In this document: positions 16,830 through 63,283 of the stretch, in pieces
Layout: each line of letters opens with the position of its first letter
Numbering within the stretch: position 1 is the stretch's first letter
DNA from: Nanobdellota archaeon
GTDB taxonomy: Archaea; Nanobdellota; Nanobdellia; SCGC-AAA011-G17; JACPIM01
Length of the DNA: 64,000 bases
Direction: 5' to 3'
NCBI GenBank assembly: GCA_038046265.1
Contig: JBBSWN010000010.1
Location: forward strand, 75,091 to 139,090
The notes under the pieces: generated by a model
Seen by the model: the letters and a program-made list of their open reading frames with translations, nothing else
Told to the model about the DNA's origin: nothing
Databases searched by the model: none
Program-made: the position numbers and the translations under genes

Positions 16830-17681
16830 CTATTGGTTTTTTTGCATGTTTTCTTTTAATTTTAGAATTGTTTCTTCTATTCTTTTTGTTATATCTGGCA
16901 GTTTAAGGCCTGTTTTTTCTAATTTAGTTGTATCTATAATAGCATCTACTCTTTTTACTTTTGATTTTTTGTCTAATTCTTCTTTTGGTTTTATGTTAAT
17001 TTCCATTTTATCTTTGAGATTATCTTTTAACATTAGCGCTATTTTATGTGGTGAAATAGTTCCTGAATTAGTAATATTAAATATTCCTGTTTGATTTTTG
17101 TCTATTAGATGCTTAGTTGCCAGTAATAAATCATCTGCAATTGTCATGCTATTTGGATTTGTATGAAATTCTTTATAATTCAGCATTTTATGAAGTATAT
17201 TTCTTGGGTGAACTTTAGAACTTAATAATAGCCTTGGTCTTAATATTAATACTTTTAGTCCTTTTTTTATTTTGTCTTGCAGTAACTGGTCTGCCCATGT
17301 TTTTGTCCACGAATAAAATGCAATTGGTTTCGGCAGGTCTGTTTCTTTGAATATTGGCTTACCGTCAATGCTTTCAAATATACAACCAGAAGAAATATGG
17401 ATTAAGAAAATATTATTTTTAAGACAGACTTTTGCTACATTATCTGCACCTAAGGTATTAACTTTGAATGTTTCTAATCTATTTTCTTCACACCAGTCTG
17501 TATTTGTTTTTGCTGCTGTGTTAATTACTATATTTGGCTTGAAATTGTCAACAGCTTTCTGAACTTCTTCTTCGTTTGTTATATCTACTTGCGCTATTTC
17601 AGATTTATAGTTGTTATTATTAAAGAAATCTTTGTATAAGTTCCCTAATTGCCCATTTCCAAAGATAAGAATTTTGTGCAT
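16830..17681 (-). CDS. NAD(P)-dependent sugar reductase, dTDP-4-dehydrorhamnose reductase (RmlD)-like
   Basis: Begins MHKILIFGNGQLGN, with AAKTNTDWCEEN and YSWTKTWADQ in the relative positions of the RmlD motifs. Confidence 0.55.
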   Translation of the reverse strand: MHKILIFGNGQLGNLYKDFFNNNNYKSEIAQVDITNEEEVQKAVDNFKPNIVINTAAKTNTDWCEENRLETFKVNTLGADNVAKVCLKNNIFLIHISSGCIFESIDGKPIFKETDLPKPIAFYSWTKTWADQLLQDKIKKGLKVLILRPRLLLSSKVHPRNILHKMLNYKEFHTNPNSMTIADDLLLATKHLIDKNQTGIFNITNSGTISPHKIALMLKDNLKDKMEINIKPKEELDKKSKVKRVDAIIDTTKLEKTGLKLPDITKRIEETILKLKENMQKNQ

Positions 17682-17744
17682 TTGAAAAAGTATTTATACT
17701 CGTTTTTAGTGGGTCTATGCTATTTATTAAGTTTTTGGAGAAAA

Positions 17745-18638
17745 ATGAAAAAATTGACTTTATTGAATATTAATTTTAATGATAGCAACCATACGCTGGA
17801 GTTATTAGAGAGTTTAAAGAATTCTAATTTTAAGGAATATGACTTTTTAGTATGGGACAATAATTCTACAAAGCCAGAGGCTGCTGAAGCGAGAGATAAA
17901 ATAGAGAAAATGCAGGATATTAAACTAATCAAAAACAGCAAAAATTTAGGTTTTACAGGCGGTGTTAATGGAGCTCTTAAACACATTAAGACAAAATATG
18001 TTTTATTGTTAAATCCAGACACTATAATTGATAAAGATACAATTAAGGAAATGCTAGGTCTTATTGAAGGTGATGAAAAAATAGCTTTTGTAAGCGCAGC
18101 AATTTATAATTATCATCAAAGAGACAAGATAGACTCTTTTGGCGGGAAAATGAGTTTTTTTACTGGCATAGGAAGGCCGTTGAAAATTGAAACTGAAACC
18201 AGAGAATTGAAAGATGGAGAATATTGCGATGCCTGCTGCTTGATGTTTAACAGGGAAATTTTTATAGAATTAGGCGGGTATGATGACAGGTATTTTGCTT
18301 ATGCTGAAACAGAAGATGTTTTATTTAAAGCTATGAAAAAAGGGTATAAAGTTTATATAAACCCTAAGGCAAGAGTATGGCATAAACTATATGGAAGTTC
18401 TGGGGGAAAAAGGAGCAAATTTACAACTTATCATTTAGCTAGAAATAGAATTCTGTTAATGAGGAAGTATTTATCATTACCAAGATTTATGCTCTTTTTA
18501 TTTTTGAATTTATTTTTAATTACTCCGGTACAAACTTTAATATTTTTGAAAAGAAAACAGTTTGATTTAATGCCGAGCTATTATAAGGGAATTTTACACG
18601 GACTTATTGGGAAATATGGAATGGCTTTTTTTGAATAG
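17745..18638 (+). CDS. Glycosyltransferase family 2
   Basis: The ORF-track frame starts on TTG at 17649. The first ATG is at 17745, preceded by GGAG. GT-A fold with a DxD-like region and LNPDTIID. Confidence 0.7.
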   Translation: MKKLTLLNINFNDSNHTLELLESLKNSNFKEYDFLVWDNNSTKPEAAEARDKIEKMQDIKLIKNSKNLGFTGGVNGALKHIKTKYVLLLNPDTIIDKDTIKEMLGLIEGDEKIAFVSAAIYNYHQRDKIDSFGGKMSFFTGIGRPLKIETETRELKDGEYCDACCLMFNREIFIELGGYDDRYFAYAETEDVLFKAMKKGYKVYINPKARVWHKLYGSSGGKRSKFTTYHLARNRILLMRKYLSLPRFMLFLFLNLFLITPVQTLIFLKRKQFDLMPSYYKGILHGLIGKYGMAFFE

Positions 18639-18674
18639 ATTTATATATTAACTTATTTGGTTCTTGCATGCAAA

Positions 18675-19727
18675 ATGATTCAAGATAAAGATTTAATTTT
18701 ATTAAGGGAAGATTTAATTAAATTATCCCGGAGAATAGGTAGAGGAATTTCAGAGGATGTTTTTGGAAGATTATCTATAATAGAAAGAAAAAAACAAGTA
18801 TTTAACCAAAGGACTGAAGGAAATACTTCAAAGCTCGATGCTATTGCAGATACTATTATAGTTTATGAAGCACAAAAAATAGCTCGTAAACATGGAATTC
18901 CAATTTCTATTTTATCTGGTGGAGACAAAATTAAAGAAGAAGTTAATGTTTCTGTATCAGGATCGTTACAAGATAGGGTTGTATTTTCATGTGATGGAGT
19001 TGATGGCACCACAAATGCAATGACTGATGGAATGCCTTGGGCATCTGCTTTATTTGGATATACTGACCCAACAAGCAAACCTTTAGAAGGACTTAAATTT
19101 GGGGATTTTGTTACTGGTGCTGTGTATGTTGTTAGTGGAACTTCATTTGGTACTGTAAAAACGGGAAATTTATTTTTTGCTTATGATGGATGTGATTCTG
19201 CTATATTAAATGATGTTAATGGTGGCTTGTATCCTTTATTAACAACAGAAGAAACACAAGCTAAAAATTGGACATTTGGAATAGATACTATGGCTGCCAG
19301 AGCAACATATCTGCCTGGGCCAGAAAGAGACACAAAAGGAAGCGCTAGAAGACAGAAATTCTGGCAAGCTTTGACAGGATTAATTGGAACTGCTGTAAAT
19401 GATGAAGTTAGATTATTCGGGGCTGGATTAGAGCAAATGGCTATATTATCGCCTGCTACTGATAAAATAGATACAACCTTAAGTTTTTATTCTGGAAATC
19501 CAAGATTAGCTGGATGTTTAGCTGCTTACCAATTTAAAGATAATATTATTGGACCAAAAACAATTTTGAAAAAAGCTGGTGCAAAAGTTGTTGTATTTGC
19601 CGGACCGCAAAAAGGAATGGATATTGATGAAGTTCCATTACAACCACATACACATTATTTAGCTGCTGGTAATGATGAAGTTAAGAACTTTGTTTTAGAT
19701 GCTTTAAAAGATTATAATCCGGATTAA
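18675..19727 (+). CDS. Divergent inositol-monophosphatase/FBPase-family sugar phosphatase (tentative)
   Basis: SCDGVDGTTNAM resembles the DP(I/L)DGT motif. WTFGIDTMAARA resembles WD.AAG, and LAAGNDE lies in the C-terminal region. The first ATG is at 18675; the track's TTG start is at 18657. Confidence 0.35.
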   Translation: MIQDKDLILLREDLIKLSRRIGRGISEDVFGRLSIIERKKQVFNQRTEGNTSKLDAIADTIIVYEAQKIARKHGIPISILSGGDKIKEEVNVSVSGSLQDRVVFSCDGVDGTTNAMTDGMPWASALFGYTDPTSKPLEGLKFGDFVTGAVYVVSGTSFGTVKTGNLFFAYDGCDSAILNDVNGGLYPLLTTEETQAKNWTFGIDTMAARATYLPGPERDTKGSARRQKFWQALTGLIGTAVNDEVRLFGAGLEQMAILSPATDKIDTTLSFYSGNPRLAGCLAAYQFKDNIIGPKTILKKAGAKVVVFAGPQKGMDIDEVPLQPHTHYLAAGNDEVKNFVLDALKDYNPD

Positions 19728-19775: not shown

Positions 19776-21938
19776 ATGACTAGAGTTCTTGTAACAGGAG
19801 GAGCTGGATTTATTGGACACCATTTTATTAATCATTTGCTTGTAAATACTGACTGGGAAATTATTGTTTTAGATAAATTAAATTATGCAAGCTGTGGGTG
19901 GGACAGAGTAAGAGACATAAATGTTTTTAATCCTAAAAGAGTTTCTTTATTGTCTGCTGATTTTTCTCACCTTCTTGATCAGGGACTTGTAAAAGAAATT
20001 GGAGACTGCGATTATATTTTTCATATAGGTGCTGAGACGCACGTCGACAATAGTATTTTGAATCCAGAACCTTTTGTGATGAGTAATGTTGTTGGAACTA
20101 TGAGATTATTGGATTTAGCAAGAACAATGCCAAATTTAAAGAAGATGTTTGTTTTTTCCTGTTATGATCAAGATACATTTGCTTTAACTAAAAATGGAAT
20201 TAAAAAATTTGATGAAATCAAAGTAGATGATAAAGTTTTATCTATTAATCCTAAAACCGGCGAATTAGAAGAAAAGGATGTTGAGGCTGTAATTATTCAA
20301 GATTATGAGGGAGATATGTATCATTTTGAAAGTTCCAGAGCAGACATAAAAGTTACTCCAAATCACAGGATGTTTTTTGTTTCAAGTAAGGAAGGAATTC
20401 AAGTTGAAGAGGCTAGTGAAGTGGCAAAAAGATCAGTTGTTCATTTGCCAAGAGGAAACTGGAAGGGAGAAGATCAAGAAAATATTTTTTTAGAAGGAAT
20501 CGGTTATGTAAAAACAGAAGATCTTTTTTATTTATGTGGTATTTTTATTGGTGATGGATTTACTGCTAAGCAAATAAAGATTATGGAATCGAAGAGCGGT
20601 TTGACTAAATTAGAAAGAATGGATTTGGCAAGAGATTCTGAAACTGGCAGATTTATTAATACTGGAAAGATTGGGCCAATTGAAGTTGTGACTAGTACAA
20701 GCTGGAGAATATTTTTCGATATCCCTGTTTTAGATAAAGCGAGAGAAAGGCTGGAAAACACTTTACAAAGCTTAAATATTAAATATTCTGCACATTCTGG
20801 AAAGTCAGGAGAGCATATTTATTTTTCATCTAAAGAATGGCTGAAATTTTTTGAACAATTTGGAAAAGGTGCAGAAAATAAAAACATTCCTTCATGGATG
20901 CTAGAATATGATAAAAAATATTTGAAGTGTTTATTTGAAGGCCTTATTGATAGTGACGGATATTATGGCAAAAGCCACATTCAATATACTACAATATCTA
21001 AAAAGCTTTTAAAGGATATTTGTGAACTTGGATTTAAATTAGGAAGATACCCTTTTTTTAGAAAACGATATAGTGAATCTATTTTTGAAAACAGAGTAAT
21101 TAAAGGTTATGCTTATTATATTAATTTTCCATTACAAGATGTTAAAATTGGAAATAAAAATGTTAAAATAGAAAATTACAAGGGGAAGATATGGTGTCTG
21201 AAAGTAAAAGATAATAAAAATTTTATTGTTGCCAGAAATGGCAAACTAGCTTTCTGCGGAAATACTGATGAAGTTTATGGACACGCACCAGATGGTGTTG
21301 CTTACAAAGAATGGGACAGGCATAATCCAACAAATCCTTATTCTGCTTCAAAGTCAGGTGGGGAAATGCTGGCTTTATCGTATGCAAATACTTATGGTGT
21401 TCCTGTTGTTATTACAAACTGTATGAATGTTTTTGGTGAAAGACAACATCCTGAAAAATTTATACCAAAAGCATTGAATAAAATTCTTAAAGGAGAGAAA
21501 GTTACTTTACATTATTATCCTGGAAAGGAAAGACCGGGTGCAAGATTCTGGATACATGCAAGAAATGTTGCTGCGGCAATTATGTTTTTAATAGATCATG
21601 GAAAAGTTGGAGAGAAATATAATATTGTTGGAGAAAAAGAAGTTGATAATTTAGAGATTGCAAAAATGATTTCAAAAATTACTGGCAAAGAGTTAAATTA
21701 TGAAATTGATGATACTTATATGGACAGACCAGGACATGACTTAAGGTATGCTCTTGATGGAACAAAAATGAAAGAAATGGGTTGGCATATTCCAATTCCA
21801 TTTGAACAGTCGTTTGAAAAAACAGTCAGATGGATGGTGCACGAAAATAATTTAAGATGGCTTGATATCAGCACTTATTCTAAACTTGTGAATGGAAAAA
21901 ATGCCATGCAAAAAGTTGCACTTCAATCTATCAAGTAA
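19776..21938 (+). CDS. rmlB: dTDP-glucose 4,6-dehydratase (RmlB-type short-chain dehydrogenase) interrupted by an intein
   Basis: GGAGFIGHHF Rossmann motif and the YSASK catalytic motif. The conserved S-TDEVYG motif is split by 368 aa. The spliced extein would be 352 aa. Confidence 0.8.
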   Translation: MTRVLVTGGAGFIGHHFINHLLVNTDWEIIVLDKLNYASCGWDRVRDINVFNPKRVSLLSADFSHLLDQGLVKEIGDCDYIFHIGAETHVDNSILNPEPFVMSNVVGTMRLLDLARTMPNLKKMFVFSCYDQDTFALTKNGIKKFDEIKVDDKVLSINPKTGELEEKDVEAVIIQDYEGDMYHFESSRADIKVTPNHRMFFVSSKEGIQVEEASEVAKRSVVHLPRGNWKGEDQENIFLEGIGYVKTEDLFYLCGIFIGDGFTAKQIKIMESKSGLTKLERMDLARDSETGRFINTGKIGPIEVVTSTSWRIFFDIPVLDKARERLENTLQSLNIKYSAHSGKSGEHIYFSSKEWLKFFEQFGKGAENKNIPSWMLEYDKKYLKCLFEGLIDSDGYYGKSHIQYTTISKKLLKDICELGFKLGRYPFFRKRYSESIFENRVIKGYAYYINFPLQDVKIGNKNVKIENYKGKIWCLKVKDNKNFIVARNGKLAFCGNTDEVYGHAPDGVAYKEWDRHNPTNPYSASKSGGEMLALSYANTYGVPVVITNCMNVFGERQHPEKFIPKALNKILKGEKVTLHYYPGKERPGARFWIHARNVAAAIMFLIDHGKVGEKYNIVGEKEVDNLEIAKMISKITGKELNYEIDDTYMDRPGHDLRYALDGTKMKEMGWHIPIPFEQSFEKTVRWMVHENNLRWLDISTYSKLVNGKNAMQKVALQSIK
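20160..21263 (+). mobile_element. Intein (368 aa) with a LAGLIDADG homing-endonuclease domain, inserted in rmlB
   Basis: It starts with Cys (CYDQDTFALTKNG). Block B is KVTPNHRMF. Two LAGLIDADG motifs are present (LCGIFIGDGF and LFEGLIDSDGYY). The C-terminal block is NFIVARNGKLAFCGN, followed by a +1 Thr. Flanking exteins rejoin as FVFS|TDEVYG. Confidence 0.75.
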
Positions 21939-22027: not shown

Positions 22028-22582
22028 ATGTTACAAACAATTACAAAAGAATTAATTGAAGAAATGGCTGAAAAAGCCAGAACAAGTCCGAGGAAGAGGG
22101 CGCTAAAATGTTTGCATACTCCTCCAAAAGGACCTGAAGATAATTCTTATGAACCACAAAGACTAGTAAATGCTTTTCAAAGAGACACTTATGCACAACC
22201 ACACAAACACGGAAACAGAGATGCAAATGGAAATGAGGATCCTAACAATCCATCTAAATTAGAAACGTTTACAGTTTTAAAAGGAAAGCTTTATGTTGTA
22301 TTTTTTGATGATCAAGGACATTTAAGAGAAGAAATTTTGCTTTCAAATGATTTAATTCCTTATGTTGAAGTTCCACCAGGAACATGGCATACTGTAGTTG
22401 GAGAATCAGAAGTTTCTGTTGGGTTAGAAGTTAAAGTTTTAGATCCAAGCAACCAACAAAGTCCGACATATAATATGAGAACTGATAAATTCTTTGCACC
22501 TTGGGCTCCAAAAGAAGGAACTCCAGAAGCTGTTCAGTATTTAGAAGGTCTAAGAAAAAGATTAGCTATTTTTAGAGCATAA
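22028..22582 (+). CDS. Cupin-fold protein (WbuC-like, or an RmlC-like epimerase)
   Basis: 184 aa with a beta-rich region and conserved His residues (HKHGN...GTWHTV), typical of cupins found in O-antigen loci. Confidence 0.4.
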   Translation: MLQTITKELIEEMAEKARTSPRKRALKCLHTPPKGPEDNSYEPQRLVNAFQRDTYAQPHKHGNRDANGNEDPNNPSKLETFTVLKGKLYVVFFDDQGHLREEILLSNDLIPYVEVPPGTWHTVVGESEVSVGLEVKVLDPSNQQSPTYNMRTDKFFAPWAPKEGTPEAVQYLEGLRKRLAIFRA

Positions 22583-22643: not shown

Positions 22644-23795
22644 ATGAGGTATGATTTTGTAGTTTTGGGCGCCACTGGCATGCAGGGCAGGATTGTATCT
22701 AGAGACTTATTAGAAAATGGATTTTCTGTTTTAATGTGCGGGAGAGACAAGCCGAGAGTAGACCAAATTTTAGACAAATATGATAAAACTTCTTTTCAAT
22801 ATGTTGACATAAATGACAAGAGCCATGCTTTGGATGTTTTGAAAAAATCAGGAGCTAATGTAGTTGTAAACTGCATGGAGGGAGATTTTAATTTATTAGC
22901 TTTAGAACTTTCAATGAAAGCAAATGCAAGCTGTCTTGACCTTGGGTCTGAAATATGGATGACTAAGAGACAATTAAAATTAAATGATTTATTAAAAAGA
23001 AAAGGATTAATTTCTATTACAGGATGCGGGAGTGTTCCGGGTGTTGGAAATGTAATGCTGACTCATGCTGCAAATAAATTAGATAAAGTTACTGACATTG
23101 ATGTTGGATTTAGCTGGGACTCAAACATAAAGAAGTTTGTTGTGCCATTTTCAATTAAAAGTATTTTAGAAGAGTTTACTGATCCTGCTCCTATTGTACA
23201 GAAAGGAAAATTTATTAAGAAAACTCCTTTAGATTCTGTAATTGTTGACCATCACAGGGAAATTGGGAAGCAGAAAGAATTTTTTGTAAGGCATCCAGAA
23301 ACTTATACTTTTTTCAGGTATTTTAAAGATAAGGGAGTAAAGAACATAAGATTTTATGCTGGATTTCCGCAACATTCTTTTGAAAAGATAATGGCTATGA
23401 TAGATTTAGGGTTAGCAAGTTATGATGAACTTTTAATTAATGGGGTGAAAATAGCTCCTGTTGATTTTTTGACAGAAGTCTTGAAAAGAATTCAAATTCC
23501 CAAAGAATACAAGGAAGAGGAAAATTTATGGGTTAAAGTTACAGGAGAAAAGAACAAGGAGAAGAAAACTATTTTAATGGAATGTATTGTGCCGACTTTA
23601 AGTGGATGGCATGATGCTGGGTGCAATATTGACACTGGAATGCCAGCAAGCATAATGGCCCAGTTTGTGAAAAATGAAACTATTAAAGAGAAGGGAAGTT
23701 TTGCTCCTGAAGCTTGTGTACCGCCAGAACCTTTGTTCAAGGAATTAAGAAAGAGAAAAATGGTTGTTTATGAGAATGGAAGAATAATAAATTAA
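22644..23795 (+). CDS. Saccharopine dehydrogenase-like NAD(P)-binding oxidoreductase
   Basis: Begins MRYDFVVLGATGMQGRIV. The C-terminal domain resembles the Sacchrp_dh family. Confidence 0.5.
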   Translation: MRYDFVVLGATGMQGRIVSRDLLENGFSVLMCGRDKPRVDQILDKYDKTSFQYVDINDKSHALDVLKKSGANVVVNCMEGDFNLLALELSMKANASCLDLGSEIWMTKRQLKLNDLLKRKGLISITGCGSVPGVGNVMLTHAANKLDKVTDIDVGFSWDSNIKKFVVPFSIKSILEEFTDPAPIVQKGKFIKKTPLDSVIVDHHREIGKQKEFFVRHPETYTFFRYFKDKGVKNIRFYAGFPQHSFEKIMAMIDLGLASYDELLINGVKIAPVDFLTEVLKRIQIPKEYKEEENLWVKVTGEKNKEKKTILMECIVPTLSGWHDAGCNIDTGMPASIMAQFVKNETIKEKGSFAPEACVPPEPLFKELRKRKMVVYENGRIIN

Positions 23796-27500: not shown

Positions 27501-27734
27501 ATGGGAACTATAACCATAAATGTAAAAGATGATATTGAGAAAACTTTTAGAAAAAGAGTTTATCAGTTGTATGGCAAGAAAAAAGGAACTTTAGGAAAAG
27601 CACTAGCAGAAGCTATGAAGGAATGGAGCATGAAGAAAGAGTATTTTGATAGATGTATGGCTTTACTAGAAAGAGGAGCTGACATGGGTAAAATTAAGTA
27701 TAAAGAAAGAGATGAGCTGCATGATCGCGATTGA
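27501..27734 (+). CDS. Putative antitoxin (VapB-like)
   Basis: 77-aa basic protein that overlaps the start of the downstream PIN gene. Confidence 0.4.
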   Translation: MGTITINVKDDIEKTFRKRVYQLYGKKKGTLGKALAEAMKEWSMKKEYFDRCMALLERGADMGKIKYKERDELHDRD

Positions 27735-31816: not shown

Positions 31817-31855
31817 GTGAAAAGGCTTAAAAACCAACTTTATATAGATTTTGCC

Positions 31856-49567: not shown

Positions 49568-49586
49568 TTTTAGAATTTTAAGCAAC

Positions 49587-51386: not shown

Positions 51387-51462
51387 GCAACCCGAAAACT
51401 ATATAAATATAGTACAATGAATTAACAATAGTTTATGATTATTATGTTTAAATGAGGGCAAT

Positions 51463-53031: not shown

Positions 53032-53093
53032 TTATTTTATAAATAAATATTTAAATGATTAATTATAGGAGAATTTAATTTAAAGGTGAAAAG

Positions 53094-54530: not shown

Positions 54531-54574
54531 ATTAAAACGAGCAATTTAAAAATACAAAGATAGAGTTTTTTTAT

Positions 54575-55474: not shown

Positions 55475-57219
55475 ATTTTTAACCTGTAAATTCTAATTCC
55501 TTCGTTTTCTATTTGGGCCAAGAAAATCTTTTGCTTGGTGGTTATTATATAATGCATTTTTTTCAGGTCTTGATCTCCAAAGAACAAGTTATGGTTGAGC
55601 CAAAAACCTGTTAATGAAACATACTGAGCTGGGTATTGGTTTTCTTTTATAACTGAATAAGTTGAAGAAACATTTATTAAAGGATTGCCCTCAATTTCAA
55701 ACAAGATGTTTTTTATTTTGTCATGATCAACATCATTTAAGTAAAGGCCAACCTGGCTTTGAGGGCTCTCATATATTTTTTTAGCCTGGTGGTTGTTTAT
55801 TGTGAAATTCAATGCATTTACTATGATAAAAACTGTTAAGACAAGGAAAACTATTTTCTTGAATTTTAATTTGTTTATTAAAAAGAAACTAGCTATAGGG
55901 AGAATTATGAAAAAAGCCATCATAATAAAGAATATTGGAAAATTAAATAGATGGTTTATTGAAAGTTCCTTGTTTATGATATAGTTTAAAAGTATGTTTA
56001 ATGCTCCAATGTGAGTTAAGGAAAGGTTGTTAATGGGTGTTAAATTTGAAAATATAAGCTGAGTAGATATTATAAAAAAAGGGATGCTAAAGACAATTAT
56101 TTTTTTCAACTTATTTTTTTGCTCAGAAGTATAGTTATTTAAGCCAATTACGCCGAGGATTAAAACTAAAGGTGAAAGAATATCCATGTACCTAAAAATT
56201 GGTCTTCCTGTGTAAAACTTGAAAAAAGACGGCAAAGAAGAATCTGATGGGCCGAGAGCATTATTTGAAAGAACAAGAGTAAAACTTAAAATTGAAACTA
56301 GTGCGACAATTGCAAAACAAAATAATTTTCTGCTGTCTTTTATATTTTTAAATGCGAAAAAGGACAAGAAGAAAAATATCAGGCCAGACGATATTGACAA
56401 GGCGACAAGGTGCATAATTATCCAGTTAACTAAAGAAATTATGTAAGGAAATAAGCCGCCATGTTTTGAAGGTGTTAGAAATGAGTCTAGGTTGTCTTTT
56501 GCAGTGTCTTCAACAATGCCTGCTATGCTCGGGCCAAAGTGAATATAATTTCTAATTAACCAAGGAGAGATTATTAAAAGAAGAACAAAGATGCTGACGA
56601 TAATGTTCTTGCAGTTTAGTTTTTCCTTTAATGTCAGTCTTTTTATTAAAATTGAGACAAAGAAAATCGGGATTAATATTAAGCCCAAGTTTTTTGTCAG
56701 GAATGACAAGGAAATAAAAACAGATGCAAGAACATTGTTTTTTAGAGTGTTTTCCTTTAAGGACTTGTAAATAAAGTAAATTGAAGAAAGGAATAATGGG
56801 AAAAAAAGATTTTCAGCCAAGATATAGCTAGAGAAAGAGAAAAATACAGGAAGGAAAGCTGTTAAAACTACAAAATAATTTCTTTTATCTTCTTCCAGTA
56901 ATTCTTTAGAAAAGAAATATGCAGGGATTATCACTAAAGTTGAGATGAATGAATTTATTATTTTCATTAAAAAGTATATTATTTCCATATTTTTTGCAAG
57001 GTAAGCTATGGATAAAATTACAGGGTAAAGTGGCGGGTAAAAAGGAGATGGTATATTTTCTGACAAGACAAAATTATGAGTAAAGAAGAAACTTCTTGCT
57101 AATTTTGAATAAATATATTCATCCCAAAATCCTGTTGGGGAGGAAATAAAATAAGACAAGATAATCTTAATTACTACGATTATTGAGTAAATATAGACAA
57201 GTTTTTTTGTAGGGCTCAT
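55471..57219 (-). CDS. GT-C family membrane glycosyltransferase (PMT/ArnT-like)
   Basis: WDEYIYSKLARS acidic first-loop motif followed by more than 10 TM helices. Confidence 0.5.
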   Translation of the reverse strand: MSPTKKLVYIYSIIVVIKIILSYFISSPTGFWDEYIYSKLARSFFFTHNFVLSENIPSPFYPPLYPVILSIAYLAKNMEIIYFLMKIINSFISTLVIIPAYFFSKELLEEDKRNYFVVLTAFLPVFFSFSSYILAENLFFPLFLSSIYFIYKSLKENTLKNNVLASVFISLSFLTKNLGLILIPIFFVSILIKRLTLKEKLNCKNIIVSIFVLLLIISPWLIRNYIHFGPSIAGIVEDTAKDNLDSFLTPSKHGGLFPYIISLVNWIIMHLVALSISSGLIFFFLSFFAFKNIKDSRKLFCFAIVALVSILSFTLVLSNNALGPSDSSLPSFFKFYTGRPIFRYMDILSPLVLILGVIGLNNYTSEQKNKLKKIIVFSIPFFIISTQLIFSNLTPINNLSLTHIGALNILLNYIINKELSINHLFNFPIFFIMMAFFIILPIASFFLINKLKFKKIVFLVLTVFIIVNALNFTINNHQAKKIYESPQSQVGLYLNDVDHDKIKNILFEIEGNPLINVSSTYSVIKENQYPAQYVSLTGFWLNHNLFFGDQDLKKMHYIITTKQKIFLAQIENEGIRIYRLKI

Positions 57220-57277: not shown

Positions 57278-58306
57278 ATGAGAAATGAGGTTTATATTGA
57301 GATAATTAATGAAGGAATAAACAAGATATTAGGATTTCAGGATACTAGGAAGGGGGCTTTGACAGAGGGGTGTTTTTTTTATCCTTACTGGAGAAATAAA
57401 AGAGAGAGTTACGTAAATTCCAGGTGGCAGGAAGCTGTATTGAGCTTAAGCTGGTATTTTAACAAGTTCAGCAATGAGGAAATTTGGGAAAGGATTGTAA
57501 AGGGAATTGATTTTTGGAGTAGATTACAGCAGAACAATGGAAGTTTTCCAGAGTATTCAAGACATGACAGGAGCTTTTCTGCCACTGCTTTTTCCACCTT
57601 GGCTATTGTAAATTCATTAAATTTGATTAATTATTCAAAGGAAAAGTGGCTTGAAAGGATAAAAAAAAGCTGTGATTATTTAATTAAAAATGATGATTTT
57701 GTCTTCATTAGAAATGAACTTGCTGCTTCTTTAGTATTATTGAAAGCTGGAGAATATTTACATGAGCCTAATTATTTAAATGAAAGCGAGAAGAAATTTG
57801 ATTTTGTCTTGAAAAAACAAAATGAGAAAGGCTATTTTAGCGAGGAAGGGGTTTTTGACTTAAGCTACAATACCATGATACTTGAGTTACTAGGAAATTA
57901 TTATTTAAGCACAAATGACAGAAAAATCTTGGAAAGCGCAGACAAGTTTATCAACTTTTTTCATAATTTGGATTTAAAGACTTACAGGAAATACAAAAAA
58001 GCAAACTGGGTTATTATCGGCGGGTTCGAAATTTTTTCAAATGAAGTAAAAAACGGAAAAGAAGCGCTTGTCAAGGCTTTAAATAATTTTAATTTTCATC
58101 ATTTAGATTATGACAATAATTTTTGCACTGATTTATACAGGTTGTGTTATGCTTATGACAATTTTAAAGAAGATTTAGAGCATCTTGAATTAAAATCTGA
58201 GCTAAATGTGAATACTTATTATTCTGGAAGACAATCCAAAATCTTGAATATTTTAAGGCCTTTTGGAATACATAATTTTATGAGAATAAAGCAGAAACTT
58301 TTTTGA
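57278..58306 (+). CDS. Hypothetical protein, possibly alpha/alpha-toroid repeat
   Basis: Contains QQNNGSFPEY, a QW-like repeat. Confidence 0.3.
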   Translation: MRNEVYIEIINEGINKILGFQDTRKGALTEGCFFYPYWRNKRESYVNSRWQEAVLSLSWYFNKFSNEEIWERIVKGIDFWSRLQQNNGSFPEYSRHDRSFSATAFSTLAIVNSLNLINYSKEKWLERIKKSCDYLIKNDDFVFIRNELAASLVLLKAGEYLHEPNYLNESEKKFDFVLKKQNEKGYFSEEGVFDLSYNTMILELLGNYYLSTNDRKILESADKFINFFHNLDLKTYRKYKKANWVIIGGFEIFSNEVKNGKEALVKALNNFNFHHLDYDNNFCTDLYRLCYAYDNFKEDLEHLELKSELNVNTYYSGRQSKILNILRPFGIHNFMRIKQKLF

Positions 58307-58365: not shown

Positions 58366-58818
58366 TTATTTTAGTTTTTCAATTTCTAAAACTATTTTGT
58401 TAAATGCTTCTGGAGTGTTTGCACAAGACTCTGATCTTTTTGTTATTTCTTTGTTTAAATAAACTCTTAACAATATAATCGGGCAGTTTTCCCCAGCTCC
58501 TTCCATATAAGGAGGGATTGAATTAAATTCGTCACTATCAACTAAGGATTTAAGGTAATTTAAGTCTGCTTCTAACAAAGTGTTTTCATTTTTAGTTTCT
58601 TCCTTATTTTTATTTATTAAAGAAGTTATGTATTTTCCTGTTGAATAAATTTGATATTTATTTGTTACACCGCTTTCTTGTGTTTTTTCAAGGGAAATAA
58701 TTAATTTTTCCTGTTCAACCGGCGGCTGATAAACTGGAGCTGGCTCTTGTTTTGAACATCCTGAAATAACTAACAAAGATAGTGTTAGTAAAATGAATAT
58801 ATATTTTGAAATTTTCAT
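58366..58818 (-). CDS. Putative lipoprotein
   Basis: Signal peptide ending in the lipobox-like ISGCS. Confidence 0.4.
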   Translation of the reverse strand: MKISKYIFILLTLSLLVISGCSKQEPAPVYQPPVEQEKLIISLEKTQESGVTNKYQIYSTGKYITSLINKNKEETKNENTLLEADLNYLKSLVDSDEFNSIPPYMEGAGENCPIILLRVYLNKEITKRSESCANTPEAFNKIVLEIEKLK

Positions 58819-58884: not shown

Positions 58885-60324
58885 TTATTCAGGGGGGCGC
58901 CCTGATCCTCCTGCTAATAAGGCTGCTGCTCCGAGAACGTATTTTCTTAAGATAGGCCAATTATCTATGTTTTTTATTTTTCTGAAAATTACTTTTGGCC
59001 TGAAATAGAAACTTTTTAATGCCAATCTCTGCATTGCTTTTAATTCTTCTGATGTTCTGCCATGAGTTGTCCAAGGAAGCTGGTCGTCTGAGAAACCACC
59101 CCAGGTTTGATAATTATCCCAGTCTGCCTGGCTTGATGTTAAAATGCCGTGTTCTTTTGCATCTTTATACAACTGGGTGCCTGGATATGGAATTGTTACT
59201 GTGAACTGGGCCCAGTCTGGATCTAATTCTTTTGCAAAATTGATCGTTGCCATGTCATCATCTTTTGATGCTCCTGGCAGACCAATCATAAAGTAACCTC
59301 TTGTTTCTAATCCAGCTTCTCTAGCCCACTTGAAAGCATTTCTTATTTGATCGAGGGTTGCATCTTTATGAATAGTATCAATTAATTTTTGAGTTCCGCC
59401 TTCAACACCAAAATGAATACCACCACAACCAGCTGACTTCATTTTTTTTAATAATTCTAAATCAACTAATCCTGCTCTTGTAATGCAGTCCCAAATCATT
59501 TTTTCATTTAACTTTTCTTTTATTATTGCATCACATAATTCTATTGTTCTTTTTTTGCTTAATGTAAAGGTATCATCTCTTATTAGAATTTCTTTTGCTC
59601 CAAAATCATTAACTAACATTTTCATTTCTTCTACGACTCTTGGAACTGAGTGCATTCTATATCCGGTATTTGCTGTTGAACAAAATGTACATCTATAAGG
59701 ACATCCTCTTGTTGTTACCATAGTATAAGCTGGAAGTCTTTTGTAATAAGAAACAGAAGGCCTGTATAAATTCATTTTTATTAACTTTCTGTCTGGTATT
59801 GGAAAAAAATCTAAATCCTGGATTTTCGGTTTTGGTTCATTTTTAATTGTAATTCCATTTTCTTTGTAAACAATGCCTTTTACATTATTTAACGGGATAT
59901 TTTTTTCAAAAGCATCCAGAATTTCCTTAAAAGTAACTTCTGCTTCACCAATTGTAACAATATCAATGCATTCTTCCTGCGCTGTTTCCATTGGCCTTAC
60001 TGATGCATGAGAACCACCAACAATTGTTTTAATATTTGGATTTACTTTTTTAGTAATTTTACAAACTCCCAATGATTGAGAAAACATTGATGTAAGCATT
60101 GCAACACCAACAACATCATAATTATTATTTTTTATATGAAGCTCTAATTCTTCTGTAGAAATTCCTTCTGCCTCACAATCTAGGATTTCAGCTTTGTGGC
60201 CATTATGATTGAGAAAAGTAGCGATATATAATAGGCTTAATGGTTCAGATTTAGGACCTACTTTTTTACCTAATTTTTTCCAATAGCCGTTGTCTAATGA
60301 CGGCATTACTAATAGTGCTTTCAT
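58885..60324 (-). CDS. B12-binding radical SAM enzyme
   Basis: Cobalamin-binding N-terminal domain, followed by CPYRCTFC. Confidence 0.75.
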   Translation of the reverse strand: MKALLVMPSLDNGYWKKLGKKVGPKSEPLSLLYIATFLNHNGHKAEILDCEAEGISTEELELHIKNNNYDVVGVAMLTSMFSQSLGVCKITKKVNPNIKTIVGGSHASVRPMETAQEECIDIVTIGEAEVTFKEILDAFEKNIPLNNVKGIVYKENGITIKNEPKPKIQDLDFFPIPDRKLIKMNLYRPSVSYYKRLPAYTMVTTRGCPYRCTFCSTANTGYRMHSVPRVVEEMKMLVNDFGAKEILIRDDTFTLSKKRTIELCDAIIKEKLNEKMIWDCITRAGLVDLELLKKMKSAGCGGIHFGVEGGTQKLIDTIHKDATLDQIRNAFKWAREAGLETRGYFMIGLPGASKDDDMATINFAKELDPDWAQFTVTIPYPGTQLYKDAKEHGILTSSQADWDNYQTWGGFSDDQLPWTTHGRTSEELKAMQRLALKSFYFRPKVIFRKIKNIDNWPILRKYVLGAAALLAGGSGRPPE

Positions 60325-60386: not shown

Positions 60387-60468
60387 ATCTTTAACTATAG
60401 TTGATTTTAAATGTTTATATTTTAATGCTTTAAATATTTTTATATATTTTCTTATTTTCTTGTTTTTT

Positions 60469-61332
60469 ATGGAATTTAAGAATTTAACTGAAAATGTCAA
60501 AATTCCAGTTCTAGGTTTGGGAACTGGGGGGTTTGGGAGTGTTTTTGACACTTTAGCTTTAAAGAACAGGAAAAGCGTTTCTATTATTCAAGAGGCGATA
60601 AAATTAGGTGTAACTCATATTGACACTGCTGAATTATATGCTAATGGGTATTGCGAAAAATTGGTTGGGGAAGCTATAAATGAGTTTAAAAGAGAAGATT
60701 TATTTATAACTACAAAAGTTTCTCCTGATAATTTAAAGTATAATGATCTAATAAATTCTGCCAAAAACAGCCTGAAAAGATTACAGACTAAATATATTGA
60801 TTTATATTTAATTCATAATTATAATCCAAATATTCCTTTAAAGGAAACAATGGAAGCAATGGATTTTTTAGTTGAACAAAAATTAGTGAGACTTATTGGG
60901 GTAAGCAATTTTACAGTTGAAGAGTTAAAAGAAGCCCAGAAATTCACAAAAAACAGAATAACTGCAAACCAGATTGAGTATAATTTGTTTTATAGAAACA
61001 AGACTACAAACGGGTTTTTAAAAAACCAGAACATTGAAATGGAGTCTAAGATAATTCCTTATTGCCAAGAAAACAACATAATTATTATTGCTTACAGGCC
61101 ATTGGCAAAGGGAGAGTTGTTTAAGAAGGAAATTCCTATTTTAGATGAATTATGCAGAAAGTACAATAAGACAAGAGCACAAATTGCCTTGAACTGGTTA
61201 ATTTCTAAAGACAAAGTTGTTACAATACCAAAATCTTCTAATTTAGAGCATATTAAAGAGAATTTAGGAGCTTTAGGATGGAGAATGGAGAAAGAAGATT
61301 TAGAGAAATTGGATAAAATTGAATTTTCTTAG
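60469..61332 (+). CDS. Aldo/keto reductase
   Basis: MEFKNL...IPVLGLGTG and the AKR TIM-barrel motifs. The ATG is at 60469; the track's start is TTG. Confidence 0.75.
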   Translation: MEFKNLTENVKIPVLGLGTGGFGSVFDTLALKNRKSVSIIQEAIKLGVTHIDTAELYANGYCEKLVGEAINEFKREDLFITTKVSPDNLKYNDLINSAKNSLKRLQTKYIDLYLIHNYNPNIPLKETMEAMDFLVEQKLVRLIGVSNFTVEELKEAQKFTKNRITANQIEYNLFYRNKTTNGFLKNQNIEMESKIIPYCQENNIIIIAYRPLAKGELFKKEIPILDELCRKYNKTRAQIALNWLISKDKVVTIPKSSNLEHIKENLGALGWRMEKEDLEKLDKIEFS

Positions 61333-61406
61333 TTTTATATTAATCTAATAGTAGTAACAAATAGAAAGGTTTATAAACTAAATTTTTACTAGAAAATTAA
61401 AGAAAA

Positions 61407-62369
61407 ATGTCAAATCCAAACCACAAAGCAAAGAGAGATTATCTTGTTGGGAAGCTTATAGACGGGGCTTTGGCTCTTTCTGAGTTGTTTTATCAAAACT
61501 TAACGAATCCAGCAACTGACAGCAAATGTTTAGCCAGATCTCTTAATGACAAATATGATTTGACTAAAAACCAAAGAGGTAAATTAAGACAAATCTCTAA
61601 TAAAATTGAAAGAGCAAAAAGTATTGTTGGTTTTTTAACTTCTGAGTATCAATTAGGACAAAAAGGAAATTTCGAAAAAAGACAGGCGTTGTATAGATTA
61701 ATTTATGGAAAAGAACCTCCAAAAGAATTTACTATAAAACCACATTCTTTTACTATGGGTGTTTATGCTCAAAAAGAGTGCTTTAAAGAAGATGTAATGG
61801 GTGATGCTGGATCTTTAGATGTTACTATAAATGATGTGTTAAGAGATAATGGGGAAGAGATAAAGAAAGGGACTTTTAGATTTAGAAATTTAGATAATTT
61901 AGTTTTTAGAGTAAATTGTGATGATCCTGATTTTTTAGCTGAATATAAGGAAAAAGGGTTAGGAAATACTTTTGTTGAAAGGCATGAAATAAAACATATT
62001 ATTGATATATTGTGCTGGGACTATAGTGATTTTTCTGATGAATTATCTGCTGACATGTTTGCAGGACATTGGGACAGAACAAGCATTTATTTGGGAACAA
62101 TGGCTGTGGAGGCAAAAGTAAAAAAGATGAAAAGAGATTTAGAAAGATTAAAGAAAGAAGGATGCCCTGAAATTGCAATTAAGTTAAAAGAAGATGCTTT
62201 ATCTAAGGTAGAAAAATCATTTAGAGATTTTTTAGCTATTTCATTAGATGATTTAAAGGAAGTTAGCGATAACTTAGACAATACTGCTTTATCTTACGTT
62301 GTTGGGATGATTCCTTCTAGAGAGTTAGCTAGAAAAATTAAATTAATTAAAGAACATTTGAAAAAATAA
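61407..62369 (+). CDS. Hypothetical protein with an HExxH motif (possible zinc metallopeptidase)
   Basis: Contains VERHEIKHIID. Confidence 0.35.
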   Translation: MSNPNHKAKRDYLVGKLIDGALALSELFYQNLTNPATDSKCLARSLNDKYDLTKNQRGKLRQISNKIERAKSIVGFLTSEYQLGQKGNFEKRQALYRLIYGKEPPKEFTIKPHSFTMGVYAQKECFKEDVMGDAGSLDVTINDVLRDNGEEIKKGTFRFRNLDNLVFRVNCDDPDFLAEYKEKGLGNTFVERHEIKHIIDILCWDYSDFSDELSADMFAGHWDRTSIYLGTMAVEAKVKKMKRDLERLKKEGCPEIAIKLKEDALSKVEKSFRDFLAISLDDLKEVSDNLDNTALSYVVGMIPSRELARKIKLIKEHLKK

Positions 62370-62398
62370 TTGAGATTATAGACTTTTATTTATATATA

Positions 62399-63283
62399 TT
62401 ACTTTCTAACAGAATCTGCGAAGAAACCAAATAAGACTATCTGGACGCCTACTACTATTAAAAGCATTGTTAGAATTTGGGAAGGTATGTGGCCTACTTG
62501 CCCTGTTGTTATAAAGAAGTAAATTAATCTTAAGCCAATTAAAAAACCCACTAAAATAAATGTCAAGCCTATTGAGCCAAAGAATTTTAATGGTTCAAAG
62601 TCACGGTAAATTCTTAATATATTTATCCAGGCTTTTAATGCATAATCAAGAGAATTTTTAAACAACCTGCTGTCTCTTGTTTTGTTAGTTGTAATTGGGA
62701 TTTCTGCTATTCTCATTTTTGCTTTTCCTGCTCTTATTAATTGTTCTTGAGTGTATGTAAAAGTGTTGATTAAAGGAAGTTCTGCCACTTCTTTTCTAAA
62801 TGCCCTAAATCCAGTTGTTGTATCTCTTAATTTTGTTTTTAACAAGCTGGAGAAGACTTTTGCAAATGCTACGTTTCCTAACTTTTTCATTAAAGAGCCT
62901 GAGTACTGGCCCTGCCCAAATCTACTTCCCAGAACTAAGTCATAACCTTCCTGGATTTTTTTTATTAAATGAGGTATATACTGAGAAGGATATTGATTGT
63001 CGGCATCTGTATGAACTATGATGTCTGCATTTAATTCCAAGCATTTTTCCATTTCTGTTTTGAATGTCTCTGCAAGTCCTTTATTTCTTGAGTGTGAGAA
63101 GACAATAGCCCCTTTTTCCTTTGCAACTTCAACTGTCTTGTCTCTAGAGCCATCATTTATAACTAAAATTTTATAATTATAATTATTTGAATTCATTATA
63201 TTTTTTATTTCATCAATTACTTTAGGCAGAGTGTTTTCTTCATTATACGCTGGTATTGTTACAACTATAAGTTCTTTTGACAT
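62399..63283 (-). CDS. Glycosyltransferase family 2 with C-terminal TM helices (dolichyl-phosphate hexose synthase-like)
   Basis: IPAYNEENTL and TDADNQ motifs, with 2 C-terminal TM helices. Confidence 0.7.
   Translation of the reverse strand: MSKELIVVTIPAYNEENTLPKVIDEIKNIMNSNNYNYKILVINDGSRDKTVEVAKEKGAIVFSHSRNKGLAETFKTEMEKCLELNADIIVHTDADNQYPSQYIPHLIKKIQEGYDLVLGSRFGQGQYSGSLMKKLGNVAFAKVFSSLLKTKLRDTTTGFRAFRKEVAELPLINTFTYTQEQLIRAGKAKMRIAEIPITTNKTRDSRLFKNSLDYALKAWINILRIYRDFEPLKFFGSIGLTFILVGFLIGLRLIYFFITTGQVGHIPSQILTMLLIVVGVQIVLFGFFADSVRK

Follow-up and report, generated by a model that had tools for sequence, protein, structure and literature searches.

Eight radical SAM genes in a predicted surface-glycan cluster of a DPANN archaeon

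The window analysed here is a stretch of 64,000 nucleotides (contig JBBSWN010000010.1 of the Nanobdellota assembly GCA_038046265.1, positions 75,091 to 139,090), and its subject is an island of genes in which glycosyltransferases are interleaved with eight genes for radical S-adenosylmethionine (SAM) enzymes. The G+C content of the window is ~31%. A ribosomal protein operon on the minus strand occupies window positions 1-16.7 kb (L2, L4, and L3 are confirmed), and ribosomal protein L3 (15746-16708) is the left neighbour of the island. A preliminary description of this DNA had placed the island at 17649-63283 between the ribosomal operon and a tRNA. The left edge really lies at 16830, where an RmlD-like gene directly follows L3. 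The island therefore spans 46 kb up to tRNA-Thr(CGT), which was located by ARAGORN at 63487-63559 on the plus strand. Between the ribosomal operon and this tRNA there are ~40 genes with a coding density of 96%, and one fifth of them (8/40) encode radical SAM proteins, embedded in operons with glycosyltransferases. The earlier characterization of the region as a glycan or glycoconjugate island in an AT-rich archaeon agrees with this content. Given a background frequency of 1-3% radical SAM genes, which is an assumption and not a count, the chance of at least 8 such genes among 40 is P ~6e-9 to 2e-5; recurrence of the gene set in relatives is a better argument against chance than this P-value.

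As for the host, the protein encoded at 53094-54530 is 100% identical to the NCBI entry 'MAG: radical SAM protein [Nanoarchaeota archaeon]' (MAG, metagenome-assembled genome), and the genome contigs nearest to it belong to Candidatus Woesearchaeota (92% and 83% identity) and Nanoarchaeia (61-62%). Judged by these matches, the host is a DPANN archaeon represented by a Woesearchaeota/Nanoarchaeota MAG.

All eight radical SAM genes were found where they had been reported. Pfam PF04055 (Radical_SAM) exceeds its gathering score of 29.5 bits in each of them (42.8-103 bits), and each protein has exactly one intact CxxxCxxC motif. Five are of the B12-domain type, namely no. 1 (23799-25187, minus strand, PF02310 60.7 and PF04055 74.6 bits, C181xxxC185xxC188), no. 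2 (44998-46338, minus, 66.9 and 103 bits), no. 3 (51463-53031, plus, 56.3 and 79.6 bits), no. 4 (53094-54530, plus), and no. 5 (58885-60324, minus, 75.2 and 83.7 bits). The N-terminal B12-binding Rossmann domain ascribed to these proteins is detected by PF02310 (cut-off 32.1) in four of the five (56-75 bits). In no. 4 the match is sub-threshold but is supported by an AlphaFold model, built with 27 family members in the alignment, which has a predicted local distance difference test (pLDDT) score of 87.8, contains an N-terminal Rossmann domain, and superposes in Foldseek on AprD4, TsrM, QCMT/MgmA, OxsB, CysS, and TokK. Orthologues of no. 4 also carry precomputed PF02310 matches. According to the domain matches and the model, the class B architecture, a Rossmann domain plus a radical SAM core, appears in all five B12-type proteins, which may depend on cobalamin.

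The remaining three proteins are no. 6 (36846-37982, plus strand, PF04055 62.8 bits), no. 7 (47232-48356, minus, 99.3 bits), and no. 8 (48491-49567, plus, 42.8 bits), all previously described as SPASM/twitch proteins. With respect to PF13186 (SPASM, cut-off 21.5 bits), this is borne out for no. 7 (26.6 bits) and no. 8 (32.3 bits), whereas no. 6 stays below the cut-off with 17.0 bits. The three proteins have 5, 5, and 6 C-terminal cysteines (five in no. 6) versus 7 in canonical SPASM domains, mostly conserved in orthologues, and these counts are compatible with one auxiliary cluster or with a second, incomplete one. On the basis of these residues and scores, SPASM/twitch-type seems a fair label for all three, which are 358-378 amino acids (aa) long and carry no additional Pfam domain. 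Pairwise identities are only 25-33% among the five B12-type paralogues and 23-25% among the three SPASM-type proteins, which argues for old lineages and against recent duplicates.

For family placement, NCBIfam equivalog models and sequence matches in the PDB were used as a proxy in place of a tree with reference enzymes. The top NCBIfam model is HpnJ for four of the five B12-type proteins and BchE for no. 3 (154.5 bits, followed by HpnJ with 152.8). HpnJ scores (TIGR03471, cut-off 577.6) are 121, 206, 153, 314, and 219 bits for nos. 1 to 5, respectively, and no. 5 also reaches 183.5 bits with BchE. Protein no. 4 aligns end to end with the HpnJ model (residues 13-470), at 314 bits versus 147 for the runner-up family. 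The methylase models HpnR, KedN5, PhpK, and QCMT yield 50-138 bits versus cut-offs of 360-700, and no methylase family is the best match or above its cut-off for any of the five (models for GenK, Fom3, and MoeK5 were not included). Among solved structures, AprD4 is the first or second match of all five proteins (E from 4e-17 to 1.5e-26). It has the lowest E-value for no. 2 (1.5e-26, followed by QCMT with 9.5e-24), is nearly equal for no. 5 (2.5e-26), and is the sole PDB match of no. 1, the most divergent paralogue. The methylase QCMT (PDB 9CCB) is matched by all of them except no. 1. The best structural match of the no. 4 model is likewise AprD4, with TM-scores of 0.74 and 0.78. AprD4 is a 1,2-diol dehydratase, and its structure (PDB 6FD2) has the sugar substrate paromamine bound. 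The family signal thus points to sugars as likely substrates. The preliminary description had expected class B C-methylases, an assignment that the comparison does not bear out: no curated cut-off is met, the best models are the non-methylases HpnJ and BchE, and AprD4 precedes QCMT among solved structures. C-methylation is only one of several possible chemistries for these proteins.

What is published on HpnJ agrees with a sugar substrate. HpnJ is genetically required for contraction of the glucosamine ring of a hopanoid glycolipid to a cyclitol ether, and the archaeal calditol synthase Cds is proposed, again on genetic evidence, to contract the ring of a hexose already attached to a membrane lipid. 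HpnJ itself is without biochemical characterization, reviews of B12 radical SAM enzymes list it under 'other or unknown transformations', and it co-clusters with MoeK5 and Fom3 in a published sequence similarity network of cobalamin radical SAM enzymes. The hopanoid context of HpnJ is absent from the window: shc and hpnH/I/K/L were not found, HpnB is matched with only 18 bits, and the HpnL, HpnI, and HpnK models are unmatched.

The SPASM-type proteins match MoaA, AhbD/NirJ-type enzymes, peptide maturases, GDGT-MAS (GDGT, glycerol dialkyl glycerol tetraether), and BlsE over the generic radical SAM core. PDB matches of no. 7 are MoaA, 5WGG, GDGT-MAS, BlsE, and PqqE, and SkfB is the only one of no. 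8. The suggestion that these enzymes are of the BtrN/DesII type finds little to sustain it, as BtrN has no PDB match at E ≤ 1e-3 for any of the three, and DesII is matched by no. 7 alone (E = 2e-4, radical SAM core). Since StsB, PapB, and SkfB, which are sactipeptide or ranthipeptide maturases, and PqqE are among the best NCBIfam and PDB matches here, the enzymes could be imagined to mature a ribosomally synthesized and post-translationally modified peptide (RiPP), or to modify a surface protein directly, with the product being glycosylated afterwards. The B12-type proteins also match ApyD and RiPP C-methyltransferase models, all far under their cut-offs. However, the maturase matches mainly cover the generic core, Pfam reveals no RiPP recognition element, peptidase, or ABC exporter, and related loci keep glycan genes, not peptide genes. 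No short precursor open reading frame (ORF) lies beside any radical SAM gene, the gaps being ≤135 bp except for one of 304 bp with a probable antitoxin, and because no precursor gene fits these gaps we regard peptide maturation as highly improbable.

Six of the eight radical SAM genes are reported to lie in two tight operons. The minus-strand operon runs from 48356 down to 43202 and consists of SPASM-type no. 7, an HpnA-like short-chain dehydrogenase/reductase (SDR; 46338-47225, PF01370; 91 bits to HpnA, a hopanoid-associated sugar epimerase, cut-off 368), B12-type no. 2, a short glycosyltransferase of family GT2 (44265-44969, 234 aa), and, as its last gene, a flavin adenine dinucleotide (FAD) oxidoreductase of the DAO family (43202-44263, PF01266 236 bits; L-2-hydroxyglutarate oxidase 279.7, cut-off 299). 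The plus-strand operon (48491-55474) starts with SPASM-type no. 8, followed by a GT-C enzyme of the PMT/PMT_2 families (49587-51386, PF02366 40.8 and PF13231 38.4 bits, ~9 or more transmembrane (TM) segments), B12-type no. 3, the HpnJ-like no. 4, and a flippase-like membrane protein with an LPG_synthase_TM/MprF flippase domain (54575-55474, PF03706 58 bits; TIGR00374 47.4, cut-off 43.2). A second GT-C gene (55471-57219, minus strand, PF13231 32.2 bits, 11 TM segments) converges on it and has counterparts in the related loci L004, L007, L011, and L013. Both GT-C proteins pass the Pfam cut-off for PMT_2.

The short GT2 protein and a second one at the right end of the island (62399-63283, minus strand) have Pyrococcus dolichyl-phosphate (Dol-P) mannose synthase (DPMS), ArnC, and GtrB as closest solved relatives, and AglJ, Dol-P hexose transferase, PpgS, and ArnC as best NCBIfam models, all below equivalog cut-offs. 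For the short protein, PDB entry 5MLZ is the best match, AglJ reaches 138.7 bits (cut-off 325), and PpgS and Dol-P hexose transferase come next. For the longer one, DPMS (5MLZ) is found at 4.5e-21 and AglJ at 146.5 bits (cut-off 325); ArnC and GtrB are matched over nearly the full length, two C-terminal TM helices are present, and orthologues 55-85% identical occur in L004, L007, L009, and L011. At the family level only, both can be assigned to the polyprenyl-phosphate glycosyltransferase type. A Wzx/MOP-type flippase is encoded at 32934-34448 (minus strand, PF01943 80.7 bits, 12 TM segments; orthologues in L002, L007, and L009). Judging by family membership, a GT2 synthase, flippases, and GT-C enzymes together provide what a three-component system for glycosylation via a carrier lipid consists of, and this co-occurrence is kept in L004, L007, L009, and L011. 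The family of the flippase-like protein is found 0-1 genes from the HpnJ-like gene in L002, L009, L011, and L013; in L007 the distance is at most 3 kb. An orthology of this protein to HpnL was considered and dropped, as HpnL is unmatched and only the general flippase-like domain is present.

Relatives of the HpnJ-like gene were collected by a metagenome scan with the family alignment, which resulted in 80 loci annotated using window proteins as queries. The N-terminal motif of this family is specific enough to pull 254 metagenome relatives. In the alignment (A1) it reads N-P-P-W-P-G-x-G-x-G-x-R...R-W-P-H-x-R-x-D-K, is invariant at residues 7-30 of protein no. 4, and falls in a low-confidence loop of the AlphaFold model (residues 21-29, pLDDT <50). 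The W-P that comes after the CxxxCxxC motif is invariant as well.

Neighbour counts within 6 kb of the HpnJ-like gene rest on the 54 of 80 loci that have at least 4 kb of flank. By far the most constant partner is a glycosyltransferase of family GT4, which is found in 47 of these 54 loci and is the immediate upstream same-strand neighbour in 33 of the 80. Other recurring neighbours are SDRs (24 loci), SPASM-type radical SAM genes (19), GT2 (19), left-handed beta-helix (LbH) acetyltransferases (15), and other genes of the B12 type (13). Because GT4 is the constant partner in the survey, the idea that the entire HpnJ-like family works purely on a 'single sugar on Dol-P' was dropped in favour of a broader model.

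According to the gene content of individual loci, the closest relatives of the island are L001, L011, and L012, whose HpnJ-like protein is 92% identical. They keep the block 48.5-63.3 kb with per-gene identities of 32-92%; they differ in that two additional radical SAM genes of the B12 type separate the SPASM pair and that the aldo-keto reductase is located elsewhere. Such varied identity and gene content fits, as far as gene comparison can tell, the mosaic that a variable surface-glycan locus should display. Protein no. 3 has orthologues with 87% identity in L001 and 68% in L002, no. 8 has an 83% identical orthologue in L001 and L011, and orthologues of no. 6 directly adjoin the HpnJ-like gene in L003 and L009. 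The distant DPANN loci L004, L007, and L009 repeat the set of AglJ-like GT2 (55-68% identity), PMT_2, flippase-like protein, Wzx, GT9, and SPASM. They also carry 2-4 B12-type radical SAM genes and at times carbamoyl-, methyl-, or sulfotransferases.

Outside this clade, loci with proteins ~40% identical to no. 4 show the recurring order SDR, GT4, HpnJ-like, (SPASM), GT4, LbH; the taxonomy of this group rests on a single Bathyarchaeota match. Homologues of no. 2 with ~35% identity belong to candidate-phyla bacteria and Pacearchaeota. In L092 (positions 4246-14388 of ENA ERZ24794676 NODE_2387, 63.6% G+C, an unrelated organism), six B12-type genes are interleaved with two GT2 genes in an operon of ~10 kb, which shares with the window the order of a B12-type radical SAM gene and then a 234-aa GT2. 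Judged by annotation, this cluster is denser than the island and likewise uncharacterized. On such evidence the link of these radical SAM families with glycosyltransferases appears general, old, and uncharacterized, and not special to this genome.

The reading that we favour, and hold to be somewhat more probable than its opposite, is a mosaic surface-glycoconjugate locus in which the eight radical SAM enzymes would tailor sugars on the cytoplasmic side before export. SDRs, an RmlB-like dehydratase, and the DegT, LbH, and AsnB enzymes would make modified nucleotide sugars; the two AglJ/ArnC/GtrB-like GT2s would load single sugars on polyprenyl (dolichyl) phosphate, and GT4, GT2, and GT9 enzymes would assemble oligosaccharides on the lipid carrier. 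The B12-type and SPASM-type enzymes would then alter the carrier-linked sugars via hydrogen-atom abstraction. They might contract the ring to a carbocycle as HpnJ does, dehydrate and then reduce it (deoxygenation) in the manner of AprD4, C-methylate, oxidize, or epimerize it, and the neighbouring SDR, FAD, and aldo-keto oxidoreductases may complete the redox steps in the style of AprD4/AprD3. The carrier could be dolichyl phosphate, a growing lipid-linked oligosaccharide made by the GT4s, or possibly a nucleotide. Wzx and the MprF-type flippase-like protein would carry the products across the membrane, and the two PMT-type GT-C enzymes would pass them to surface proteins or glycans. The overall logic would be that of archaeal AglD/AglR/AglS or of bacterial ArnC/ArnEF/ArnT and GtrABC, with radical tailoring at the step of ArnD. 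Sugars are the expected substrates because the related loci likewise embed radical SAM genes among glycosyltransferases. What the analysis establishes is the family assignments, the operon structure, and the conserved context; from these we infer at which stage the substrate is modified, by which reactions, and with B12 as cofactor. Cobalamin uptake or salvage genes are absent from the Pfam annotation of the window proteins.

Several observations weigh against this reading. None of the eight radical SAM proteins reaches a curated NCBIfam cut-off, and hence no reaction can be assigned to them. PF02310 yields only 23.8 bits for no. 4, below the cut-off of 32.1, and AprD4, although its fold is that of the B12-type proteins, works without B12 and is grouped in a review with enzymes that have no connection to the use of this cofactor. 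No AglB/STT3 gene is present in the island. Flippase-like and PMT_2 genes accompany the HpnJ-like gene in only 6 and 3 of the 54 loci, respectively, mostly in the DPANN clade, and since these partners are common only there, the version with a single sugar on a carrier may fit only some of the modules. As far as sequence goes, the enzymes could act on a nucleotide sugar, a carrier-linked sugar, or a finished glycolipid alike. Finally, the radical SAM families seen here are also known to modify lipid hydrocarbon chains, Gmm being 31% identical to MoeK5.

The main rival, which we consider unlikely, is remodelling of membrane glycolipid head groups. According to it, a GT4 or GT2 enzyme glycosylates a lipid, the sugar head group is turned by the HpnJ-like protein and its partners into a cyclitol-type unit or another modified form similar to calditol or bacteriohopanetetrol cyclitol ether, and the MprF-type protein flips the lipid to the outer leaflet. 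The lipid might be host-derived, DPANN archaea being generally unable to make their own. This alternative would account for the full-length HpnJ-like no. 4, for the HpnA match of the SDR at 46338-47225, and for the adjoining flippase-domain gene, since the MprF family to which it belongs flips a membrane lipid whose head group is modified. It would also suit the constancy of GT4 beside the HpnJ-like gene, as the GT4 family includes glycolipid synthases. In addition, HpnJ and Cds both work on sugars already on membrane lipids. On the other hand, the HpnJ cut-off is not reached and its partner families HpnL, HpnI, and HpnK are unmatched, while the locus also contains a set typical of the glycosylation of proteins or polysaccharides, with Wzx, two GT-C enzymes, Dol-P-sugar synthases similar to AglJ, and numerous glycosyltransferases. 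In the clade with ~40% identity the gene stands between several GT4 genes, LbH, and SDR, as in oligosaccharide assembly, and homologues of Cds are reported mainly from acidophiles.

Another alternative is that lipid hydrocarbon chains are cyclized, bridged, or methylated in the style of GrsA/B, Gms, Gmm, or Tes and that the glycan neighbours are incidental. GrsA/B and Gmm are B12-domain radical SAM proteins and Gms is of the SPASM/twitch type, their genes cluster in Thermococcus, and homologues of Gms and Gmm are reported in some DPANN genomes. The SPASM-type proteins of the window also weakly match Tes, GDGT-MAS, and AhbD, the outgroup used for Gms. The Tes model, however, yields 58-76 bits versus a cut-off of 450, and the GDGT-MAS matches are restricted to the core and no better than those to MoaA. 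Isoprenoid or lipid biosynthesis genes are absent from the window and from the related loci examined, where the constant neighbours are GT4, GT2, SDR, and LbH, and within the operons radical SAM genes are intermixed with those for GT2 and GT-C enzymes. The preliminary description had already disfavoured a GrsA/B-type role on the grounds of co-localization with glycosyltransferases, and the context agrees; judged by this context and by the Tes model, we find this alternative quite improbable.

Returning to the tailoring of sugars before export, the locus can be compared with several known systems. HpnJ has the same architecture as the B12-type proteins, a Rossmann domain plus a radical SAM core, and protein no. 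4 scores twice as high with it as with any other family; like HpnJ, no. 4 is encoded among genes for a glycosyltransferase, an HpnA-like SDR, and a flippase-like membrane protein. No. 4 differs in its 314 bits versus the cut-off of 577.6, in the archaeal host, and in the lack of hopanoid genes in the window. Cds is likened to it by function, a ring-contracted lipid head group, and not by sequence comparison. As for AprD4, which works with the reductase AprD3 in apramycin biosynthesis, no. 2 together with the SDR 46338-47225 resembles this dehydratase/reductase pair. Identity to AprD4 is ~19% in the structural alignment, however, the sequence matches are confined to the radical SAM core and leave out the N-terminal domain, and AprD4 is cobalamin-independent, its substrate being a soluble pseudo-disaccharide of secondary metabolism. 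The cobalamin-dependent enzymes MoeK5, GenK, Fom3, and OxsB, whose substrates are sugars or similar to sugars, and QCMT/MgmA share the two-domain fold, with QCMT aligning over both domains, and MoeK5 C-methylates a lipid-linked sugar. They belong, however, to antibiotic or cofactor pathways, whereas the best profile matches of the window are HpnJ and BchE.

Three-component lipid-carrier glycosylation is known from Haloferax AglD/AglR/AglS and from the bacterial GtrA/B/C and ArnC/D/EF/T systems, and the window likewise has polyprenyl-phosphate GT2s, flippases, and GT-C enzymes of the PMT/ArnT type. With ArnD there is a precedent for altering a sugar while it is linked to the carrier; to our knowledge, no three-component system of this kind uses radical SAM enzymes. 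In contrast to these systems, the flippase-like protein of the window belongs to the MprF family and not to GtrA or ArnE/F, and the AglJ cut-off is not reached. The gms-gmm-grs cluster of Thermococcus guaymasensis similarly combines SPASM/twitch and B12-domain radical SAM genes in an archaeon. It acts on GDGT hydrocarbon chains, however, and is not embedded in glycosyltransferase operons, and Gms has a COG4001 domain, for which the SPASM-type proteins of the window have no equivalent in Pfam.

Literature searches returned no description of such a locus and nothing that joins DPANN or Woesearchaeota with radical SAM enzymes, and a search for B12 radical SAM enzymes and polysaccharides gave unrelated capsule work. 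The term 'radical SAM' is absent from the top-ranked archaeal N-glycosylation literature found, and neither 'glycan' nor 'polysaccharide' occurs in the most recent review of B12 radical SAM enzymes. To that extent the claim that no characterized locus is so dense in radical SAM genes stands; the density is nevertheless not singular, given the related and even denser uncharacterized clusters elsewhere, such as L092. In terms of its annotation, the locus appears to be of a known kind, a surface-glycan gene cluster, with an unusual but recurrent layer of radical chemistry, and similar and denser clusters are widespread.

Otherwise, antibiotics (aminoglycosides, moenomycin) are where radical sugar chemistry is known, together with two head groups of lipids, the hopanoid cyclitol ether and calditol. 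Recurrence over many uncultivated lineages points to a large unexplored set of microbial surface sugar modifications. Most of the HpnJ/AprD4-like part of the B12-type radical SAM family is without assigned function, and the sets of GT2, radical SAM, and SDR genes offer a tractable entry to new reactions there. For DPANN archaea, the island suggests that even with a reduced genome there is heavy investment in a surface that is variable and of elaborate chemistry, which likely matters for host attachment or evasion of viruses and may tie the organism to external cobalamin. In a broader and, in that generality, doubtful form, one may speculate about an unrecognized pathway of 'radical glycan tailoring' in DPANN, many sediment archaea, and candidate-phyla bacteria, by which dolichyl-phosphate- or lipid-linked sugars would be rewritten before export. 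If that were true, their surface glycans or glycolipids would contain kinds of sugar not yet seen in protein or cell-wall glycosylation, with changes that include calditol-like carbocyclic units, radical deoxygenation, and C-methylation, and the surface biogenesis of a host-dependent organism would require externally supplied cobalamin.

Regarding the other genes of the island, Pfam confirms the Wzx flippase, AsnB, DegT, and LbH enzymes and the two PMT/PMT_2 GT-C proteins of the preliminary description. Its estimate of about 11 glycosyltransferases besides the two GT-C genes was too high, as 8 GT-A/GT-B genes (9 domains, one gene being a GT9+GT2 fusion) and 2 GT-C genes were counted. In addition to the two polyprenyl-phosphate-type GT2s, these are a rhamnosyltransferase-like GT2 (17649-18638, plus strand, PF00535 66 bits, best NCBIfam model rhamnosyltran, below cut-off); the fusion of a heptosyltransferase-like GT9 with a GT2 (28135-29979, minus, PF01075 53 and PF00535 25 bits); GT4 enzymes at 30656-31837 (minus, PF00534 126.7 bits, PF13439), 31817-32941 (plus, PF00534 and PF13439, with a 55% identical orthologue in L002), and 40271-41488 (plus, PF00534 127.9 bits); and a GT-B enzyme (Glycos_transf_1) at 37988-39184 (plus, PF00534 68.7 bits, with an 80% identical orthologue in L002). 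GT9 genes flank the cassette in L007 and L009 as well. The nearest counterpart of GT4 40271-41488 stands directly 3' of the HpnJ-like gene, followed by the flippase-like gene, in L002 (45% identity) and L013 (44%).

Rml-type enzymes had also been claimed, and an RmlD-like and an RmlB-like protein are indeed present, both under their equivalog cut-offs; RmlA and RmlC were not found in the window, so that the full dTDP-rhamnose (Rml) pathway is not recovered there. The RmlD-like SDR reductase (16830-17681, minus strand) has 121 bits with Pfam RmlD_sub_bind and 114.5 with NCBIfam rmlD (cut-off 224). Its gene and the first GT2 ORF (17649-18638) share 33 bp at their 5' ends. Because this ORF has a TTG start and its Pfam match begins only at residue 43, its true start probably lies further downstream. 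The RmlB-like nucleoside diphosphate (NDP)-hexose 4,6-dehydratase (19776-21938, plus) is interrupted by an intein, with GDP_Man_Dehyd/Epimerase matches in two pieces and matches to Intein_splicing and LAGLIDADG_3; the spliced extein of 352 aa has 279 bits with dTDP-glucose 4,6-dehydratase (cut-off 365). The intein is 368 aa long (C129-N496), carries a LAGLIDADG homing endonuclease, and sits inside the catalytic STDEVYG motif with the junctions FVFS|C...FCGN|TDEVYG, the penultimate residue being Gly where His is usual.

Further sugar-related genes include a WbuC-family cupin, of a family associated with O-antigen loci (22028-22582, plus strand, NCBIfam TIGR04366 95.9 bits, cut-off 42), an NDP-sugar epimerase/dehydratase SDR (39181-40179, minus, PF01370 170.6 bits, under all equivalog cut-offs), an LbH (hexapeptide) sugar O/N-acetyltransferase (41488-42093, plus, PF00132, best NCBIfam models WbbJ and WcaF), and a DegT-type sugar aminotransferase similar to PseC/LegC/ArnB (42127-43209, plus, PF01041 425.5 bits; PseC 294.8, cut-off 423.5). 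The AsnB-type glutamine amidotransferase (34496-36373, plus, PF00733 344.8 bits), of a kind linked to exopolysaccharide loci, passes TIGR01536, and its best match is the XrtA/PEP-CTERM amidotransferase (617 bits versus a cut-off of 817). Among the oxidoreductases are a saccharopine-dehydrogenase-like NAD(P) enzyme (22644-23795, plus, Pfam Sacchrp_dh_C and Sacchrp_dh_NADP) and an aldo/keto reductase (60460-61332, plus, PF00248 209 bits), which in close relatives has the GT-C gene on one side and radical SAM no. 3 on the other. A fusion of a 4Fe-4S ferredoxin with PterinBD-DUF4346 (30034-30618, minus, PF13370; PF14251 73 bits) could supply electrons to the radical SAM clusters; no such fusion was found in the related loci. 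The PterinBD-DUF4346 domain is also C-terminal in MtrA-like and dihydropteroate-synthase-like proteins. An EamA/DMT membrane transporter is encoded at 26547-27407 (minus, PF00892 134.7 bits, ~9-10 TM segments by hydropathy).

Apart from these genes, the island contains a receiver domain, a PIN toxin, and five ORFs to which neither Pfam nor NCBIfam assigns a family. The latter are 18657-19727 (plus strand, without a predicted TM segment), 25237-26505 (minus, upstream of radical SAM no. 1 on the same strand), 57278-58306 (plus), 58366-58818 (minus, encoding a small protein that begins with a TM or signal segment; the gene lies 3' of radical SAM no. 5 and has an orthologue in L005), and 61407-62369 (plus). 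ORF 57278-58306 is conserved, with orthologues 63-81% identical in L005, L011, and L013; its sub-threshold Pfam matches are faintly similar to alpha/alpha-toroid proteins (pectic acid lyase, LanC-like), and it may be a glycan-processing enzyme. A faintly GH76-like gene lies within ~7 kb downstream of the HpnJ-like gene in L007. The stand-alone receiver domain (36363-36755, minus, PF00072 27.3 bits, cut-off 30.2) is weak and may hint at regulation of the locus; it is located between AsnB and the first SPASM gene, and the same position is taken in L002.

In related Nanoarchaeia, sulfation genes or a carbamoyltransferase stand beside the cassette (L009 17358-21437 and L007 6893-8596), the former being a sulfotransferase, adenosine 5'-phosphosulfate kinase, and CysN-like and 3'-phosphoadenosine 5'-phosphosulfate reductase-like genes, which suggests sulfated or carbamoylated variants of the glycan. 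As for the PIN toxin gene (27712-28131, plus strand), its start is overlapped by 23 bp by a small ORF of 77 aa (27501-27734, plus, no NCBIfam match). The two sit in the island's sole long intergenic gap and, by their arrangement, look like a toxin-antitoxin pair of the VapBC type.

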